DNA of 64,000 nt from GCF_056712565.1 NZ_CM160072.1; one strand, 5' to 3'. Positions 2,945-35,306 are shown, counted from the first letter of the stretch. Program-made: numbers and translations. Notes: generated by a model not told the origin, from the sequence alone.

Positions 2945-3190
2945 ATGGCGGTCCAACTTTTCAAAACTCTTCTGAATCAGATCCCCTTATTTTCATCCCT
3001 GCAAAGTGGAACATTGCCATTGTTTGGCTATTCAGGACGGGTCAGAGCAATGAAAAAAGCCCACACAGGGGAGAGTGGGCTGAAATGGGAAGCTAAAGAC
3101 TCAAGTAAACTTATCGGAAATAAGGACCACGCATTACGGGGGCTATCATCGCCGATGGTCGGGATTCGGCAAATCAGGTTGATTACGTAG
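2945..3190 (+). CDS. yahM: Small hypothetical protein (81 aa)
   Basis: ATG at 2945 inside a longer TTG-initiated ORF; ends 17 bp before convergent yahN stop, matching the K-12 arrangement as I recall it. Confidence 0.35.
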   Translation: MAVQLFKTLLNQIPLFSSLQSGTLPLFGYSGRVRAMKKAHTGESGLKWEAKDSSKLIGNKDHALRGLSSPMVGIRQIRLIT

Positions 3191-3206
3191 AGAGTAAATT
3201 ATCTGC

Positions 3207-3878
3207 TCACCGCTGCGTCACCCCTTCGTAAATCAGGCGTAGCGCGAATACACCAATAATTGCACCAATAACCCGACTGGCAACGCGTTGCATACGCCCA
3301 TAAGCACGACGCACTGCGGGCAAAGAAAACGCCTGACTAAGAAAGACTCGCCAGATAATTGATGCGAGCACAATCCCCGCCCAGGCCATTAAACGTGCCC
3401 ATGTTGGTGTTTCGGCATTTAATGTTACTGAGAAAATACTGATAAAAAATAAAACGGTTTGCGGGTTAGAGAGATCGGTAATTAATCCACGGCGGAAAAA
3501 GACATACCAGGGGGCACTAATCGGTTGTTGTAGTGTGCTCATCTGCGGTGTTGACTGGCGGCGCATGCTACACCACGCAAACCATAAGAGATAAGCGCCG
3601 CCGACGATTCTGATAAGCGAAAAAATCTCCTCACACTGCGTAATTAGCGTTGCAAGACCAAACAAACCCAACCCGGAATAAAACGCATCGCCCAGCGCCA
3701 CGCCCAGTCCGGTCAGCACCCCTGCGCGTCGACCGGAAGCCAGGCTGGTTTGTACTACCACAAAGAGATTGGCTCCCGGATTAAAAAAAGTAATCACGAA
3801 CAGTCCTACGGTCAGATAAACGGCGTGCAAAGGATCCATAGTGATTTCATCCATAAATAAGTGAAGTAACTTCATCAT
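3207..3878 (-). CDS. yahN: LysE/RhtB-family amino acid exporter
   Basis: 223-aa multi-TM ORF, minus strand; size and position match yahN. Confidence 0.75.
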   Translation of the reverse strand: MMKLLHLFMDEITMDPLHAVYLTVGLFVITFFNPGANLFVVVQTSLASGRRAGVLTGLGVALGDAFYSGLGLFGLATLITQCEEIFSLIRIVGGAYLLWFAWCSMRRQSTPQMSTLQQPISAPWYVFFRRGLITDLSNPQTVLFFISIFSVTLNAETPTWARLMAWAGIVLASIIWRVFLSQAFSLPAVRRAYGRMQRVASRVIGAIIGVFALRLIYEGVTQR

Positions 3879-4024
3879 ATTTCTACCAAAAATAATCGGG
3901 TGCGAGAGAGATCACAAAGTGTCTTATTTCCGGTTACTGGCGTTTATGCCCTGACTGAACTAATTATTAATCAACCCAATAATGTGGGTGGGTGATAGTG
4001 TGATAACAACTCTGGAGCCGTAAT

Positions 4025-4300
4025 ATGAAAATAATCTCTAAAATGTTAGTCGGTGCGTTAGCGTTTGCCGTTACCAATGTCTATGCCGCAGAATTAATGA
4101 CCAAAGCGGAATTTGAAAAGGTTGAATCGCAATATGAAAAAATAGGTGATATTTCAACCAGCAATGAAATGTCGACCGCAGATGCGAAAGAAGATTTGAT
4201 CAAAAAAGCGGATGAAAAAGGGGCTGATGTGTTGGTGCTGACCTCTGGTCAAACTGACAATAAGATTCACGGCACGGCAAATATTTATAAGAAGAAGTAA
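4025..4300 (+). CDS. yahO: Small periplasmic protein (DUF1471/YdgH-BhsA family)
   Basis: 91-aa ORF with signal peptide [21 protein letters not shown] and lysine-rich mature part. Confidence 0.7.
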
Positions 4301-4400
4301 TTCTGAAACCTATGTAAACATCCCCGATGCGTAAGTTTATCGGTGATCATCATCTATTGAAATTTATGCCGGATAAAGCGTTCGCGCTGCATTCGGCAGT

Positions 4401-9854: not shown

Positions 9855-11741
9855 ATGTCTTTTAGCGAATTTTATCAGCGTTCGATTAACGAACCGGAGC
9901 AGTTCTGGGCCGAGCAGGCCCGGCGTATTGACTGGCAGACGCCCTTTACGCAAACGCTCGACCACAGCAACCCGCCGTTTGCCCGTTGGTTTTGTGAAGG
10001 CCGAACCAACTTGTGTCACAACGCTATCGATCGCTGGCTGGAGAAACAGCCAGAGGCGCTGGCATTGATTGCCGTCTCTTCGGAAACAGAGGAAGAGCGT
10101 ACCTTTACCTTTCGTCAGCTGCATGACGAAGTGAACGCGGTGGCCTCAATGTTGCGTTCATTGGGGGTGCAGCGTGGCGATCGGGTGCTGGTGTATATGC
10201 CGATGATTGCCGAAGCGCATATTACTCTGCTGGCCTGCGCGCGTATTGGCGCTATTCACTCGGTGGTGTTTGGTGGATTTGCCTCGCACAGCGTGGCGGC
10301 GCGAATTGATGATGCTAAACCGGTGCTGATTGTCTCGGCTGATGCCGGAGCGCGCGGTGGCAAAATCATTCCCTATAAAAAATTACTCGACGATGCGATA
10401 AGTCAGGCGCAGCATCAGCCGCGCCACGTTTTACTGGTGGATCGCGGACTGGCGAAAATGGCGCGCGTCAGCGGGCGGGATGTCGATTTCGCGTCGTTGC
10501 GCCATCAACACATCGGTGCGCGGGTGCCGGTGGCGTGGCTGGAATCCAACGAAACCTCCTGCATTCTCTACACCTCCGGCACGACCGGCAAACCTAAAGG
10601 TGTGCAGCGTGATGTCGGCGGATATGCGGTGGCGCTGGCGACCTCGATGGACACCATTTTTGGCGGCAAAGCGGGCGGCGTGTTCTTTTGTGCTTCGGAT
10701 ATCGGCTGGGTGGTAGGGCATTCGTATATCGTTTACGCGCCGCTGCTGGCGGGGATGGCGACTATCGTTTACGAAGGATTGCCGACCTGGCCGGACTGCG
10801 GCGTGTGGTGGAAAATTGTCGAGAAATATCAGGTTAGCCGCATGTTCTCAGCGCCGACCGCCATTCGCGTGCTGAAAAAATTCCCTACCGCTGAAATTCG
10901 CAAACACGATCTTTCGTCGCTGGAAGTGCTCTATCTGGCTGGAGAACCGCTGGATGAGCCGACCGCCAGTTGGGTGAGCAATACGCTGGATGTGCCGGTC
11001 ATCGACAACTACTGGCAGACCGAATCCGGCTGGCCGATTATGGCGATTGCTCGCGGTCTGGATGACAGGCCGACGCGTCTGGGAAGCCCCGGCGTGCCGA
11101 TGTATGGCTATAACGTGCAGTTGCTCAATGAAGTCACCGGCGAACCGTGTGGCGTCAATGAGAAAGGGATGCTGGTAGTGGAGGGGCCATTGCCGCCAGG
11201 CTGTATTCAGACCATCTGGGGCGACGACGACCGCTTTGTGAAGACGTACTGGTCGCTGTTTTCCCGTCCGGTGTACGCCACTTTTGACTGGGGCATCCGC
11301 GATGCTGACGGTTATCACTTTATTCTCGGGCGCACTGACGATGTGATTAACGTTGCCGGACATCGGCTGGGTACGCGTGAGATTGAAGAGAGTATCTCCA
11401 GTCATCCGGGCGTTGCCGAAGTGGCGGTGGTTGGGGTGAAAGATGCGCTGAAAGGGCAGGTGGCGGTGGCGTTTGTCATTCCGAAAGAGAGCGACAGTCT
11501 GGAAGACCGTGAGGTGGCGCACTTGCAAGAGAAGGCAATTATGGCGCTGGTAGACAGCCAGATTGGCAACTTTGGCCGCCCGGCGCACGTCTGGTTTGTC
11601 TCGCAATTGCCAAAAACGCGATCCGGAAAAATGCTGCGCCGCACGATCCAGGCGATTTGCGAAGGACGCGATCCTGGGGATCTGACGACCATTGATGATC
11701 CGGCGTCGTTGGATCAGATCCGCCAGGCGATGGAAGAGTAG
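9855..11741 (+). CDS. prpE: Propionyl-CoA synthetase
   Basis: 628-aa ORF, acyl-CoA synthetase AMP-binding motif YTSGTTGKPKG. Confidence 0.92.
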   Translation: MSFSEFYQRSINEPEQFWAEQARRIDWQTPFTQTLDHSNPPFARWFCEGRTNLCHNAIDRWLEKQPEALALIAVSSETEEERTFTFRQLHDEVNAVASMLRSLGVQRGDRVLVYMPMIAEAHITLLACARIGAIHSVVFGGFASHSVAARIDDAKPVLIVSADAGARGGKIIPYKKLLDDAISQAQHQPRHVLLVDRGLAKMARVSGRDVDFASLRHQHIGARVPVAWLESNETSCILYTSGTTGKPKGVQRDVGGYAVALATSMDTIFGGKAGGVFFCASDIGWVVGHSYIVYAPLLAGMATIVYEGLPTWPDCGVWWKIVEKYQVSRMFSAPTAIRVLKKFPTAEIRKHDLSSLEVLYLAGEPLDEPTASWVSNTLDVPVIDNYWQTESGWPIMAIARGLDDRPTRLGSPGVPMYGYNVQLLNEVTGEPCGVNEKGMLVVEGPLPPGCIQTIWGDDDRFVKTYWSLFSRPVYATFDWGIRDADGYHFILGRTDDVINVAGHRLGTREIEESISSHPGVAEVAVVGVKDALKGQVAVAFVIPKESDSLEDREVAHLQEKAIMALVDSQIGNFGRPAHVWFVSQLPKTRSGKMLRRTIQAICEGRDPGDLTTIDDPASLDQIRQAMEE

Positions 11742-11914
11742 GTCGGATAAGGCGCTCGCGCCGCATCCGACACCGTGCGCAGATGCCTGATGCGACGCTG
11801 ACGCGTCTTATCATGCCTACAGGCCTGAACCGTAGGTCGGATAAGGCGCTCGCGCCGCATCCGACACCATGCGCAGATGCCTGATGCGACGCTGACGCGT
11901 CTTATCATGCCTAC
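11741..11914. repeat. BIME/REP cluster: about 1.85 tandem copies of a 94-bp unit containing paired REP sequences
   Basis: ggtcggataaggcgctcgcgccgcatccgaca...gcctgatgcgacgctgacgcgtcttatcatgcctac repeated with one mismatch. Confidence 0.8.
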
Positions 11915-15395: not shown

Positions 15396-16694
<1,299 letters not shown>

Positions 16695-21729: not shown

Positions 21730-21946
<217 letters not shown>

Positions 21947-25255: not shown

Positions 25256-25966
25256 TTAATCTCCTGTACGGATAAGTTCTTGTCGGAGTGAATAAGTTCC
25301 GGTAGGTAAATTACGTTCTACAATCACGCGCGGGCCAAGTTGCGTGTTCGGGGAAATAATTCGCCCAGGCAAAATAATAACTTGTACGCCAAGGCGTGAA
25401 CGCTGCCCGATATAACAACCTAATTTATCGCATCCGGTAGCGATAATTCCATCTGGAGTTCGAACAGACACGGGCTGTTCATCCAGACGATGATTACTGG
25501 TTCGTACTTGTGCGCCCAAATATGCCTGGTTTGCAACTACCGAGTCGGCAATAAAGCATTGCGGACCAATCGTGGCTTCCGCTTCAATAACCGCATTTTT
25601 AATTTCGGTGGCAAAACCAATTCTTACGCCATTGCTGATTATTGTGCCAGGACGAATAAACGCATAATTACCTATTAGGCAGTTTGCGCCAATCACTACC
25701 GGACCCTGAATAACGGCACCGTGGCAAATACGGGTATTCGCGCCGATAACAACCTCACCGGCACTTTCATCAATAATCACCTGGTCTGCAATCTGAATAT
25801 TTTTCTCTTTAACATTAAGCTTCAGATAGTTTTTCAGTTCCTGTGACAGAAGGGTGGGAATAAGCGGTTGACACTTCCACCAGTGCGGAATAGCGGGTGG
25901 GTTTGTCGCGCTGAGGTTCGCGTCCAGTAAAAAAGGCAATAAGTCCATAAATAATCCAGATGGCAT
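25256..25966 (-). CDS. yaiX: Hexapeptide-repeat (left-handed beta-helix) acyl/acetyltransferase; start codon uncertain
   Basis: Repeated [LIV]-G-x-x-x-x hexapeptides (VIGANTRICHGAVIQGPVVIGANCLIGNYAFIRPGTIISNGVRIG); 5' end overlaps yaiP by up to 152 bp; stop is 1 bp from yaiO ATG. Confidence 0.6.
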   Translation of the reverse strand: MPSGLFMDLLPFLLDANLSATNPPAIPHWWKCQPLIPTLLSQELKNYLKLNVKEKNIQIADQVIIDESAGEVVIGANTRICHGAVIQGPVVIGANCLIGNYAFIRPGTIISNGVRIGFATEIKNAVIEAEATIGPQCFIADSVVANQAYLGAQVRTSNHRLDEQPVSVRTPDGIIATGCDKLGCYIGQRSRLGVQVIILPGRIISPNTQLGPRVIVERNLPTGTYSLRQELIRTGD

Positions 25967-27071
25967 AAGCTAATAATACATACACAACGGAAAGCGGTGC
26001 TAAAGGCACCAACAACCAGCAACGATGAAACCAGGCGCTAAATGCACCAATAACACAAACTACGCCGACCCAGATAAGCGGGAACATTGCCAACACCACA
26101 CCATGTGGCCCGGTGGTGATGAATTCATTAAACCAGGTAGTGAGATAAATACCAACGCCATAAAGCACAACCAACAGCATAGGAAATATACTGAAGATAC
26201 CGAAGCGGCTAAATAAAAGTCTTTTATGCAGGCGCATACAGACCGCGTAGCCCACAATCCAACGCCGCCAGCGGCGCCACTCCTCACGCGGACTGTTACA
26301 TTCCTGTGGGTATACGATGCAGCGATTCGCCTGCCGAATACGGTAGCCGTTTGCCACCAATGTCCAGGTGAGATCAAGGTCTTCGACTTTAGTACGATCC
26401 GAGAAACCGAACTTACGCAATACATCAGTACGGAACATCCCGCAGGCACCGCTGATGATAAACGGTGCGCCGCCCAGAAGCTGCTGTAGCGTGCGCTTCA
26501 TAACAATCATCGGCAACTTTACGGTCGCGCGGATGTGTAGCTGCTGTAGCGTGCGCTTCATAACAATCATCGGCAACTTTACGGTCGCGCGGATGTGTGG
26601 TAACAGACCCGCGCCTTTCAACGCAGTAGAGGGAATGCCGCCTACGGCATCAGCGCCACGCTCAATTTCCGCCAGCATATAGCCCATTCCGTCTTGATCG
26701 GGCGGAACATAGGTGTCGGCATCACTTAAAAAAACCTGATCGCAGGTGGCGTAATTGAGGCCATTCATCAGCGCACCACCTTTACCGGTATTTTTTTGCG
26801 TGACGGCAACAAAGCGGTCGCCCCATTTGCGTTTGACTTCCGCCATGACCGCTTCGGTATTGTCCATGGAGCCGTCGTTAACGCAAATTACCCGGCAAAA
26901 ATAAGGGTTACGCAGCAGATTATCCAGTGACTGCGCCAGACACGGGCCTTCGTTATAAGCAGGTATAATGGCGTCAATACAGCCTTTCTTTTGGCTGGGC
27001 TTACGCCTTAACGTACTCAGAAACCATAGCAATATTGCTACGGCCATACATATAAAGATCCAGGTTTTCAT
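25815..27071 (-). CDS. yaiP: Integral-membrane family-2 glycosyltransferase (synthase-like topology)
   Basis: 418 aa; N-terminal TM, CVNDGSMDNT and SDAD (DxD) motifs, EEWRRW (QxxRW-like), four or more C-terminal TM helices; contains a 20-aa tandem duplication. Confidence 0.75.
   Translation of the reverse strand: MKTWIFICMAVAILLWFLSTLRRKPSQKKGCIDAIIPAYNEGPCLAQSLDNLLRNPYFCRVICVNDGSMDNTEAVMAEVKRKWGDRFVAVTQKNTGKGGALMNGLNYATCDQVFLSDADTYVPPDQDGMGYMLAEIERGADAVGGIPSTALKGAGLLPHIRATVKLPMIVMKRTLQQLHIRATVKLPMIVMKRTLQQLLGGAPFIISGACGMFRTDVLRKFGFSDRTKVEDLDLTWTLVANGYRIRQANRCIVYPQECNSPREEWRRWRRWIVGYAVCMRLHKRLLFSRFGIFSIFPMLLVVLYGVGIYLTTWFNEFITTGPHGVVLAMFPLIWVGVVCVIGAFSAWFHRCWLLVPLAPLSVVYVLLAYAIWIIYGLIAFFTGREPQRDKPTRYSALVEVSTAYSHPSVTGTEKLSEA
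26479..26598. repeat. Perfect 60-bp tandem duplication (2 copies) inside yaiP
   Basis: agctgctgtagcgtgcgcttcataacaatcatcggcaactttacggtcgcgcggatgtgt at 26479-26538 repeated exactly at 26539-26598; encodes HIRATVKLPMIVMKRTLQQL twice in frame. Confidence 0.95.
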
Positions 27072-30102: not shown

Positions 30103-30926
30103 GTGTGCTCATTAATGAAAAACTGCATTCGCATCGGCTGAAATGGCGCTGGCCGCTCTCGCGTCAGGTGACCTTAAGCATTGGTACGTTAGCGGTTTTG
30201 CTCACTGTATGGTGGGCAGTCGCGGCGCTGCAACTGATTAGCCCGCTGTTTTTGCCGCCACCGCAACAGGTACTGGCAAAACTGCTCACCATTGCCGGGC
30301 CGCAGGGATTTATGGACGCCACGCTGTGGCAGCATCTGGCAGCCAGCCTGACGCGCATTGTGCTGGCGCTACTCGCGGCGGTGTTGATCGGTATTCCGGT
30401 CGGGATCGCCATGGGGCTAAGCCCGACGGTGCGCGGCATTCTGGATCCGATAATCGAGCTTTATCGTCCGGTGCCGCCGCTGGCTTATTTGCCGCTGATG
30501 GTGATCTGGTTTGGTATTGGCGAAACCTCGAAGATCTTACTGATCTATCTAGCGATTTTTGCGCCGGTGGCGATGTCGGCGCTGGCGGGGGTGAAAAGCG
30601 CGCAGCAGGTTCGCATTCGTGCCGCCCAGTCGCTGGGTGCCAGCCGTGCGCAGGTGCTGTGGTTTGTCATTTTGCCCGGCGCGCTGCCGGAAATCCTCAC
30701 CGGATTACGCATTGGTCTGGGTGTGGGCTGGTCTACGCTGGTGGCGGCGGAGCTGATTGCCGCAACGCGCGGTTTAGGATTTATGGTTCAGTCAGCGGGT
30801 GAATTTCTCGCGACTGACGTGGTGCTGGCGGGGATCGCGGTGATTGCGATTATCGCCTTTCTTTTAGAACTGGGTCTGCGCGCGTTACAGCGCCGCCTGA
30901 CGTCCTGGCATGGAGAAGTACAATGA
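30099..30926 (+). CDS. tauC: Taurine ABC transporter permease
   Basis: 275-aa multi-TM ORF; 4-bp overlaps with tauB and tauD. Confidence 0.92.
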
Positions 30927-32788: not shown

Positions 32789-33313
32789 GGTCTGCCTGAT
32801 GTTTGTGGAATCGAGGAGCATAGTATACCTGAAGCAGGCTGGGTGTGTTTTACGAAAGTTGTCGCGATGTTGACAAAAAGAGAATGAAAAAGAGGTCAGG
32901 ACATCTTTGTAATAGAAATAGCAATAATTTCATATTCACTGAAAATATTTTTAATTTTTATTTATAGCCATAGATTATTGTTTTTGGGGATTTGGTGACG
33001 TTTCCAAAAAGTGAATAGCTTAAAGTTCATTGCTTATTGATACATTATTTGTCTGTTTTTGTTGTTTTATATTTTCATGGTCTATGTTTTAAAATTAACG
33101 CTTTCATTAACGTATTGAAATATTGTGTTTTTGTTATTTCTTTCTTTGTGTGTGTTCACGTGCTTTATATATGTCCGCAATCGGACTTAGGGGAAAGAAT
33201 AATTGAACCATTCCTCTATAACGCCGCATAATCGTAAACGCGAAACATAATATGTTTTCTATGCATTGATAATTGATGGATCAACTTATTACGTCCCTGA
33301 GGAGGGATGACAA

Positions 33314-33970
33314 ATGCACTCCTGGAAAAAGAAACTTGTAGTATCACAATTAGCATTGGCTTGCACTCTGGCTATCACCTCTCAGGCTAATGCAGCAAAC
33401 TATGATACCTGGGGGTATCATGACAACACCACGACCGATTTAGTTTGGCCGTATGACACTGACAATGATGGAATTGCCGATGCTGGCGGCATGGACCCGA
33501 TGGGTTCAGACGGTAACTACGTAACTTACAATGGTTTTGTTTACTATAACAATGCCAATGGCGATTTCGATACTGTCTTTAAAGGCGATACCGTTAACGG
33601 TACCATTTCTACTTATTACTTGAATCATGATTACGCTAGCGGTTCTGTTAACCAGGTAGATATCAGCAATTCAGTAATTCATGGGGCAATCACCTCTGAA
33701 CTGCCATTTGGTTATTACAGCATTACTCCTGCAGAAGTTAATGCTAAAGGTGAAGTTGTAACTCCACAGACCTATAATGGCTATAATTTCTATAACGGAA
33801 TCACTACTGACCTTGACTACAATTGGTACGATGGTGACGTATTCACTCTGAACGTATCCAATTCCACCATTGATGATGACTATGAAGCTCTTTACTTCAC
33901 TGACACATATCTTGATGGTGATAAATCTAAGTCAACCAATGAAACGTTCTATACCGCTCTGGGTGTTGCA
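33314..33970 (+). pseudogene. yaiT: Autotransporter-family protein, N-terminal fragment, truncated by IS2
   Basis: Signal peptide MHSWKKKLVVSQLALACTLAITSQANA, N/T/D-rich passenger repeats; reading frame runs into the IS2 end at 33971. Confidence 0.7.
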
Positions 33971-33981
33971 TGGATTTGCCC

Positions 33982-34887
33982 CTATATTTCCAGACACCTG
34001 TTATCACTTAACCCATTACTGGCTTGCTGCCGTAGATATTCCCGTGGCGAGCGATAACCCAGTGCACTATGCGGATGCCATTCGTTATAATGCTCGAACG
34101 CCTCTGCAAGGTTCTTTGCTGCCGTTAACCCGTCTGGTTTGGGCATGACACTGATGTAGTCACGCTTTATCGTTTTCACGAAGCTCTCTGCTATGCCGTT
34201 ACTCTCCGGACTCCGCACCGCCGTGCTCTTCGGTTCAAGCCCCAACATCCGGGCAAACTGCCGTGTTTCATTAGCCCGGTAGCATGAACCATTATCCGTC
34301 AGCCACTCTACTGGAGACGCCGGAAGCTCGTTGCCGAAGCGGCGTTCCACCGCTCCCAGCATGACGTCCTGTACTGTTTCACTGTTGAAGCCGCCCGTAG
34401 TGACCGCCCAGTGCAGTGCCTCACGGTCACAGCAGTCCAGCGCGAACGTGACTCGCAGTTTTTCTCCGTTATCACAGCGGAACTCGAACCCGTCAGAGCA
34501 CCATCGCTGATTACTTTCTTTCACAGCCACTCTGCCTGTATGTGCCCGTTTCGATGGCGGTACAGCAGGTTTTCGCTCAAGCAACAGCGCATTCTGGCGC
34601 ATGATCCGGTAAACACGTTTGGCATTGATCGCAGGCATACCATCAAGTTCTGCCTGTCTGCGAAGCAGCGCCCATACCCGACGATAACCATACGTGGGCA
34701 GCTCTCCGATAACATGGTGTATACGGAGAAGCACATCCGTATCATCAGTGTGACGACTGCGGCGGCCATCCATCCAGTCATCGGTTCGTCTGAGAATGAC
34801 GTGCAACTGCGCACGCGACACCCGGAGACAACGGCTGACTAAGCTTACTCCCCATCCCCGGGCAATAAGGGCGCGTGCGCTATCCAC
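33982..34887 (-). CDS. insD: IS2 transposase OrfB
   Basis: 301-aa ORF with DDE integrase core, ends [29 protein letters not shown]. Confidence 0.9.
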
Positions 34888-35210
34888 TTTTTTGCCCGTC
34901 CATATTCAACGGCTTCTTTGAGGAGTTCATTTTCCATCGTTTTCTTGCCGAGCAGGCGCTGGAGTTCTTTAATCTGCTTCATGGCGGCAGCAAGTTCAGA
35001 GGCAGGAACAACCTGTTCTCCGGCGGCGACAGCAGTAAGACTTCCTTCCTGGTATTGCTTACGCCAGAGAAATAACTGGCTGGCTGCTACACCATGTTGC
35101 CGGGCAACGAGGGAGACCGTCATCCCTGGTTCAAAGCTCTGCTGAACAATTGCGATCTTTTCCTGTGTGGTACGCCGTCTGCGTTTCTCCGGTCCTAAGA
35201 CATCAATCAT
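34845..35210 (-). CDS. insC: IS2 transposase OrfA (HTH)
   Basis: Start at [26 protein letters not shown]; 121 aa; overlaps insD as expected for programmed -1 frameshifting. Confidence 0.9.
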
Positions 35211-35306
35211 CTGCTCTCCAATGACTAGTCTAAAAACTAGTATTAAGACTATCACTTAAATAAGTGATATTGGTTGTCTGGAGATTCAGGGGGCCAGTCT
35301 ATTGCA

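Follow-up and report, generated by a model that had tools for sequence, protein, structure and literature searches.

An insertion sequence (IS) of the IS2 type interrupts an autotransporter gene in a stretch of Escherichia coli DNA of 64,000 nucleotides (GCF_056712565.1, NZ_CM160072.1), referred to here as the window. The interrupted gene lies between hemB and iprA (yaiV), and the same flanks were found in the window, K-12, CFT073, UTI89 and O157. Judged by its sequence, it is the type Va autotransporter gene called yaiT in K-12, upaC in uropathogenic E. coli (UPEC) and ehaB in enterohaemorrhagic E. coli (EHEC). A first-pass annotation, made from the sequence alone, had pointed to the insertion at 33966-35306, and we examined the gene, the element, the corresponding empty site and the same locus in other strains.

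The interrupted autotransporter gene

The insertion divides the gene into two fragments on the plus strand. The 5′ fragment (33314-33970; nt 1-657, codons 1-219) is identical to nt 1-657 of the gene in strain SF-468 and encodes a signal peptide (MHSWKKKLVVSQLALACTLAITSQANA) and the start of the passenger. Judged by eye, the N-terminus has a basic stretch followed by a hydrophobic one and closes with ANA ahead of AN, consistent with a Sec signal peptide. The 3′ fragment (35307-37637; nt 658-2988, codons 220-995 and the stop) is likewise identical to the SF-468 gene. It encodes the rest of the passenger, a pertactin-like/autochaperone region and the beta-barrel translocator, and has no signal peptide of its own.

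Domains were assigned by Pfam and NCBIfam profile searches with curated cut-offs. In the rejoined protein, the beta-barrel (PF03797) was located at residues 737-974 (160 bits; cut-off 26) and TIGR01414 at residues 601-995 (297 bits). The pertactin-like/autochaperone region (PF03212/PF18883) was placed at residues 600-687, where Pertactin scored 24.1 bits (cut-off 22) and AC_1 scored 20.7 bits, below its cut-off. The domain division agrees with the first-pass annotation, which had assigned the signal peptide and passenger start to the N-terminal fragment and the remaining passenger and beta-barrel to the C-terminal fragment.

Identity of the rejoined protein was 99.8% with its CFT073 counterpart at this locus, 82% with K-12 YaiT after rejoining and 64% with O157 EhaB. 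Conservation was highest in the barrel (at least 99.6% identity to the CFT073, K-12 and O157 proteins), and the signal peptide was essentially invariant too. The passenger was polymorphic, with 50-75% protein identity (75% for K-12, ~50% for the EhaB form). The window gene resembles upaC of CFT073 and ehaB of O157:H7 in its locus, but differs from both in being interrupted and from the EhaB form in its passenger. The Prokaryotic Genome Annotation Pipeline (PGAP) gives the name ehaB to alleles at this locus in O157:H7 and many other lineages. UpaC is taken to be the product of locus tag c0478.

EhaB has been equated with UpaC, which is the form found in extraintestinal pathogenic E. coli (ExPEC)/B2 strains (PMC8281228). 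EhaB/UpaC have also been tied to the K-12 yaiT/yaiU pseudogene, with Salmonella SeaB as the positional orthologue (PMC13248724). UpaC, like EhaB, promotes biofilm formation; laminin and collagen I, both extracellular-matrix proteins, are bound by EhaB (PMC9289746). UpaC is included in a list of H-NS-repressed UPEC autotransporters (PMC5012682). The hemB-upaC intergenic region (32822-33313) is 492 bp long and has 32% GC. GC content is 44% in the passenger and 36% in the 100 bp around the insertion site, relative to 51% in the window. The low GC content of the upstream region and passenger is consistent with an H-NS target and with the reported silencing of upaC.

Structure of the IS2 element

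The sequence from 33966 to 35306 consists of TTGCA, 1331 bp and a second TTGCA. The 1331 bp (33971-35301) form a complete IS2, whose transposase genes are on the minus strand, antisense to the autotransporter gene. Alignment with IS2A of K-12 MG1655 extended over positions 1-1331 with 0 gaps, at 97.7% identity (30 substitutions). Alignment of the ends, both read on the minus strand, identified two imperfect inverted repeats: the right inverted repeat (IRR; donor end) of 41 bp at 33971-34011, adjoining the 5′ gene fragment, and the left inverted repeat (IRL; recipient end) of 42 bp at 35260-35301, adjoining the 3′ gene fragment. When aligned with each other, the two ends showed one 1-bp gap, as expected for 42 and 41 bp, which are the lengths reported for IRL and IRR of IS2 (PMC3299598).

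The two overlapping open reading frames (ORFs), insC and insD, are both intact. The insC gene (orfA; 34845-35210, minus strand) encodes a 121-aa protein predicted to be a helix-turn-helix DNA-binding protein and repressor (Pfam HTH_Tnp_1); it scored 276 bits against the NCBIfam IS2 repressor TnpA model (cut-off 229). The insD gene (orfB; 33982-34887, minus strand) encodes a 301-aa protein that Pfam matches (rve, rve_3 and HTH_21) identify as the catalytic portion of the transposase, with a DDE integrase core; it scored 713 bits against the NCBIfam IS2 transposase TnpB model (cut-off 597). A slippery heptamer, A AAA AAG, is present in frame with insC (34887-34893, minus strand; IS2 positions 409-415), and a programmed -1 frameshift at this site would generate the OrfAB transposase. 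Identical IS2 copies carry the PGAP annotation "programmed frameshift".

The length, ends, ORFs, frameshift motif and 5-bp duplication all place the element in IS2 (IS3 family, IS2 group), and its sequence is intact. It shares with IS2A of K-12 yaiX the length of 1331 bp, the 42/41-bp imperfect ends, insC/insD with the A6G -1 frameshift site, the DDE (rve) domain and the 5-bp duplication. It differs from IS2A by the 30 substitutions and by its new insertion site. Copies 100% identical to the window IS2 occur in many E. coli genomes, including many B2/ExPEC genomes and SF-468, the nearest relative. IS2-like sequence is common in the collection that we searched, 5,426 complete E. coli genomes: it was found in 4,898 of them, at a median of 4 places in each genome.

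Empty site and age of the insertion

Joining of 33314-33970 to 35307-37637 yielded 2988 nt with 995 codons and no internal stop. The rejoined gene was identical, over every base, to the uninterrupted 2988-nt gene of SF-468, and the rejoined protein is WP_000556414.1, which is annotated as intact in SF-468, UTI89 and APEC O1. A 6665-bp reconstruction of the surrounding region was also identical to SF-468. The left TTGCA (33966-33970) and the right TTGCA (35302-35306) correspond to a single TTGCA at the SF-468 empty site, and BLAST of the window against SF-468 gave two segments that overlapped by exactly 5 bp (TTGCA). A chance 5-bp repeat, expected a priori in 1 of 1024 cases, is excluded by this empty-site comparison.

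These findings agree with what had been proposed from the sequence alone, namely a complete 1331-bp IS2 with insC, insD and both terminal repeats, flanked by TTGCA direct repeats (correct to the base), whose removal rejoins an autotransporter of about 995 aa in frame. The first-pass annotation had also suggested a comparison with intact alleles and allowed for further disabling mutations in the joined frame; there were none.

The insertion is very young. A 22-kb segment downstream of IS2 was 100% identical to several B2 strains of the ST95 type (SF-468, NU14, APEC O18 and O2:K1:H7 isolates). Over the whole 64-kb window, the differences from SF-468 were only IS2 with its 5-bp duplication, one 1-bp indel (15778) and two single-nucleotide polymorphisms (SNPs; 23674 and 30903). 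Because the window otherwise equals SF-468, the insertion is recent, and the gene carries no other disabling lesion. All this amounts to one simple transposition, of very recent date, into an allele with no other flaw. SF-468 holds IS2 copies 100% identical to the window copy, consistent with transposition from a resident donor copy. The autotransporter gene is intact in SF-468, UTI89, APEC O1 and CFT073. When the genome collection was searched with a 400-bp junction probe, with at least 80% of the query required to be covered, matches were found in 0 of 5,426 genomes.

The SNP at 30903 falls within the end of tauC, a short distance upstream of the tauD start. The indel lies in lacY (15396-16649, minus strand), which is intact in the window (417 aa); SF-468 lacY has one base fewer in the G run at window position 15778 and is annotated as frameshifted.

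Predicted consequence of the insertion

IS2 is located after nt 657 of the autotransporter gene, at codon 219/220. The 5′ open frame continues into IS2 and stops at 34057, which gives a 247-aa chimera of 219 native and 28 IS-encoded residues. An exact-match look-up of this product among ~15 billion proteins returned none. A 787-aa ORF that begins at a TTG inside IRL is a mechanical ORF. Because the 247-aa stub lacks the beta-barrel, it would not be displayed on the surface. With no barrel in the 5′ product and no signal peptide in the 3′ part, neither fragment should be able to give a surface-displayed adhesin, and the allele is predicted from this architecture to be null.

A promoter consensus scan of 32800-35700 gave 7 promoter-like sites (5.3 expected), none of them at the junctions, and no terminator-like site was detected in the same interval. 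On these results we rejected the idea that the junctions create an outward-facing hybrid promoter or a terminator: the promoter-like sites were not in excess, and none was at a junction.

Independent insertions at the locus in other strains

In MG1655, IS3B lies in yaiT after nt 1458 (target-site duplication GAT), and IS2A lies in yaiX. This agrees with the first-pass annotation, which proposed that the window allele arose independently; the different element, site (nt 657 vs. nt 1458) and lineage confirm that it did. The K-12 yaiT::IS3B pseudogene (b4580) is similar to the window allele in that the same positional gene carries an IS3-family element with a clean duplication and the rest of the frame is open; once rejoined, the K-12 ORF encodes 968 aa without a stop. 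It differs in that its IS3 has 1258 bp and a 3-bp duplication. Between the two alleles, the passenger is 75% identical in protein and the barrel 100%.

A second IS2 insertion, after nt 287 (duplication AACGG), is present in APEC O78 and ~280 genomes. Like the window insertion, it is an IS2 that runs antisense to this gene and has a 5-bp duplication; it differs from the window insertion in its site, in the sequence of the duplication, in its IS2 variant (97.7% identical) and in the allele of the gene (~96% identical). This insertion is old enough to have been widely inherited and to have acquired secondary lesions: later insertions of IS2, IS3 and IS1, and a 15-bp deletion next to the element. 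In W137 (locus positions 601-2203), a derivative of the nt-287 insertion has the same right junction and a 15-bp deletion adjoining IRR, so that a target-site duplication is not applicable. Eco_23-3571 carries a second IS2 copy in the opposite orientation, farther downstream in the gene (duplication GAAGC). N2250 has an IS3 after nt 87 (duplication AAC), added to the nt-287 IS2 lineage. An IS3 was found after nt 286 in strain 6817 (duplication ACT), and an IS1 near nt 75 in an O121 strain. In strain 510016, an IS2 (locus positions 3001-4331; duplication CTTTG) lies in the AT-rich hemB-yaiT intergenic region, upstream of an intact gene. This intergenic copy might alter the H-NS-repressed promoter of the autotransporter gene.

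A census of the locus was made in an evenly spaced sample of 60 genomes. Its counts are uncorrected for phylogeny: ~280 genomes carry one ancestral IS2 event, and many K-12 derivatives carry one IS3 event. The autotransporter gene was interrupted, truncated or deleted in at least 11 of the 60 genomes, and a further 6 were split ambiguously. All B2-type alleles with at least 98.8% identity were intact (10/10 sampled). The control gene was sbcC, a non-essential gene of 3144 nt located 20 kb away from the autotransporter gene; it gave a single uninterrupted match in 60/60 sampled genomes and in all 5,424 records. Recurrent disruption of the autotransporter gene is real, and far above that of its housekeeping neighbour sbcC.

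Other features of the window

The yaiP glycosyltransferase gene (ORF 25815-27071, minus strand) contains a perfect 60-bp tandem duplication at 26479-26598 (2.0 copies, 100% match), which adds 20 in-frame residues (418 aa). The duplication is shared with SF-468 (1257 nt) and missing from UTI89, APEC O1 and CFT073 (1197 nt). Tandem arrays of the REP/BIME type are present at 11738-11914 and 21731-21941, with periods of 94 and 101 bp, in the prpE-codB and lacI-side intergenic regions. An Rfam scan of the window revealed only these REP-derived sequences, as naRNA4 (RF02564), with three hits of 68-81 bits, above the gathering threshold and far from IS2.

Discussion

The window insertion is, with high probability, an IS2 copy-out event that created a recent, private null allele of upaC/yaiT/ehaB at a repeatedly hit locus. 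An IS2 copy already resident in an E. coli of the B2/ST95 type would have transposed by the copy-out/paste-in route of the IS3 family, through a figure-of-eight and a minicircle to integration with a 5-bp staggered cut. By inserting at codon 219/220 of the autotransporter gene, which hemB and iprA flank, it would have produced a null allele whose 5′ part specifies an exported 247-aa stub bearing a signal peptide and whose 3′ part has no signal peptide. The event is very recent and, as far as collections show, strain-specific, and it joins many other independent IS hits at a locus where loss is tolerated.

Several points weigh against this view. Loss of function is deduced from the architecture of the two fragments. 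"Strain-specific" means only that the junction was missing from each of the 5,426 other complete genomes. That IS events exceed those in sbcC does not tell relaxed selection apart from target preference or from positive selection, and the sample is uncorrected for the shared ancestry described above.

Why the locus is hit so often is a separate matter. The first-pass annotation had read the disruption as a sign of recurrent selection against the protein or of tolerance of its loss. Recurrent hits and tolerated loss are both supported by the present data; selection against the protein is not demonstrated. Neutral, tolerated loss, perhaps aided by target bias, is the simplest account, and neutrality or target preference would then be the cause of the recurrence.

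The possibility that the locus is a regional hot spot for integration of IS2 or other IS elements, by way of AT-rich, H-NS-bound or bent DNA, would make the recurrence a matter of mutational bias instead of selection. We regard it as possible but doubtful. Evidence for it comes from a 1,200-day stationary-phase evolution experiment in which the dead yaiT of K-12 gained 4 independent insertions among 331 of IS2 (PMC7858067 Table 3). The expected number is 0.21 (Poisson P = 7e-5, uncorrected); after correction for ~4,295 genes, the excess is not significant (~0.3). Because K-12 yaiT was already dead, loss of the protein cannot explain these four hits, and they give a statistically weak hint of a regional IS2 preference for AT-rich silent adhesin loci. 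Other multiply hit genes in the same table are likewise silent fimbrial or adhesin genes such as htrE, and the low GC content around the window insertion site, 36% in a window of 51%, points in the same direction. However, the five IS2 duplications or junctions (TTGCA, AACGG, GAAGC, CTTTG and the derived W137 junction) are at different sites and have no common motif, and IS3 and IS1 strike the gene too. A hot spot is compatible with tolerated loss, and the two are not mutually exclusive.

Positive selection for loss of a surface adhesin or antigen, through immune evasion or the cost of expression, would make the IS2 allele adaptive. At least 8 independent IS events in or beside one ~3-kb gene, with none in the sample in a non-essential neighbour of the same size (sbcC), fit such selection, and a title cited in PMC9289746 and PMC13248724 describes the EhaB orthologue as immunogenic in cattle. 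We nevertheless consider this explanation unlikely. The closest relatives (SF-468, UTI89, APEC O1 and CFT073) keep an intact allele, as did every one of the 10 sampled B2-type alleles with at least 98.8% identity. The reported H-NS silencing (PMC5012682) leads one to expect a low cost of the gene, and IS2 struck the K-12 yaiT four times when it was already inactive (PMC7858067).

Reversible control of the adhesin is much less probable. According to this explanation, IS2 serves as an ON/OFF switch, and phase variation results from insertion and precise excision. Removal of IS2 with one TTGCA does restore a perfect gene, and IS3-family elements excise precisely at high frequency in the presence of transposase and the excision enhancer IEE, known in O157 (bioRxiv 10.1101/2023.06.07.543989). 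IS2 transposition, however, proceeds from asymmetric cleavage at IRR through a figure-of-eight to a replicated minicircle, and the donor copy stays in place (PMC3299598); the copy-out pathway regenerates the donor site (PMC3299598; bioRxiv 10.1101/2023.06.07.543989). Precise excision is mechanistically unlikely, because IS2 copies out and its donor copy is retained. For the gene to revert, either a rare slippage event across the 5-bp repeats or an excision enhancer of the IEE type would be required, and the IEE gene is absent from the 64-kb window. The nt-287 IS2, inherited by ~280 genomes of its phylogroup, has gathered secondary lesions instead of reverting, which is decay and not switching, and none of the 5,426 genomes shares the window junction. 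The earlier proposal that precise excision would restore the frame therefore holds for the sequence but is unlikely on mechanistic grounds.

Misplacement of a repeat copy into the gene during assembly is conceivable for a multicopy element such as IS2, since repeats are a classic source of misassembly, but the 5-bp duplication is perfect, its sequence occurs once at the empty site, and neither junction is off by a single base; such features mark true transposition and make an artefact the least probable explanation of all.

The preferred reading, a recent IS2 knock-out at a locus of tolerated loss, is of modest importance. The element and gene are known, and the locus is already disrupted by IS elements in K-12; novelty is confined to the insertion site. 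The event is an ordinary gene knock-out, with no new element, mechanism or gene family. There is a slim chance that the locus is a truly preferred landing zone for IS elements (H-NS-bound, AT-rich, curved DNA) or that loss is positively selected in some ExPEC sublineages. If so, the IS2 allele would be an instance of predictable, repeatable adhesin loss, even of reversible switching, and not a random hit. As it stands, the window provides a clean, recent UpaC null allele whose ST95-type (ExPEC) background is, apart from the insertion, isogenic with intact strains, and may serve as a natural knock-out for the study of UpaC. It also adds one more independent IS event at a locus whose disruption is relevant to proposals of such autotransporters as vaccine antigens.
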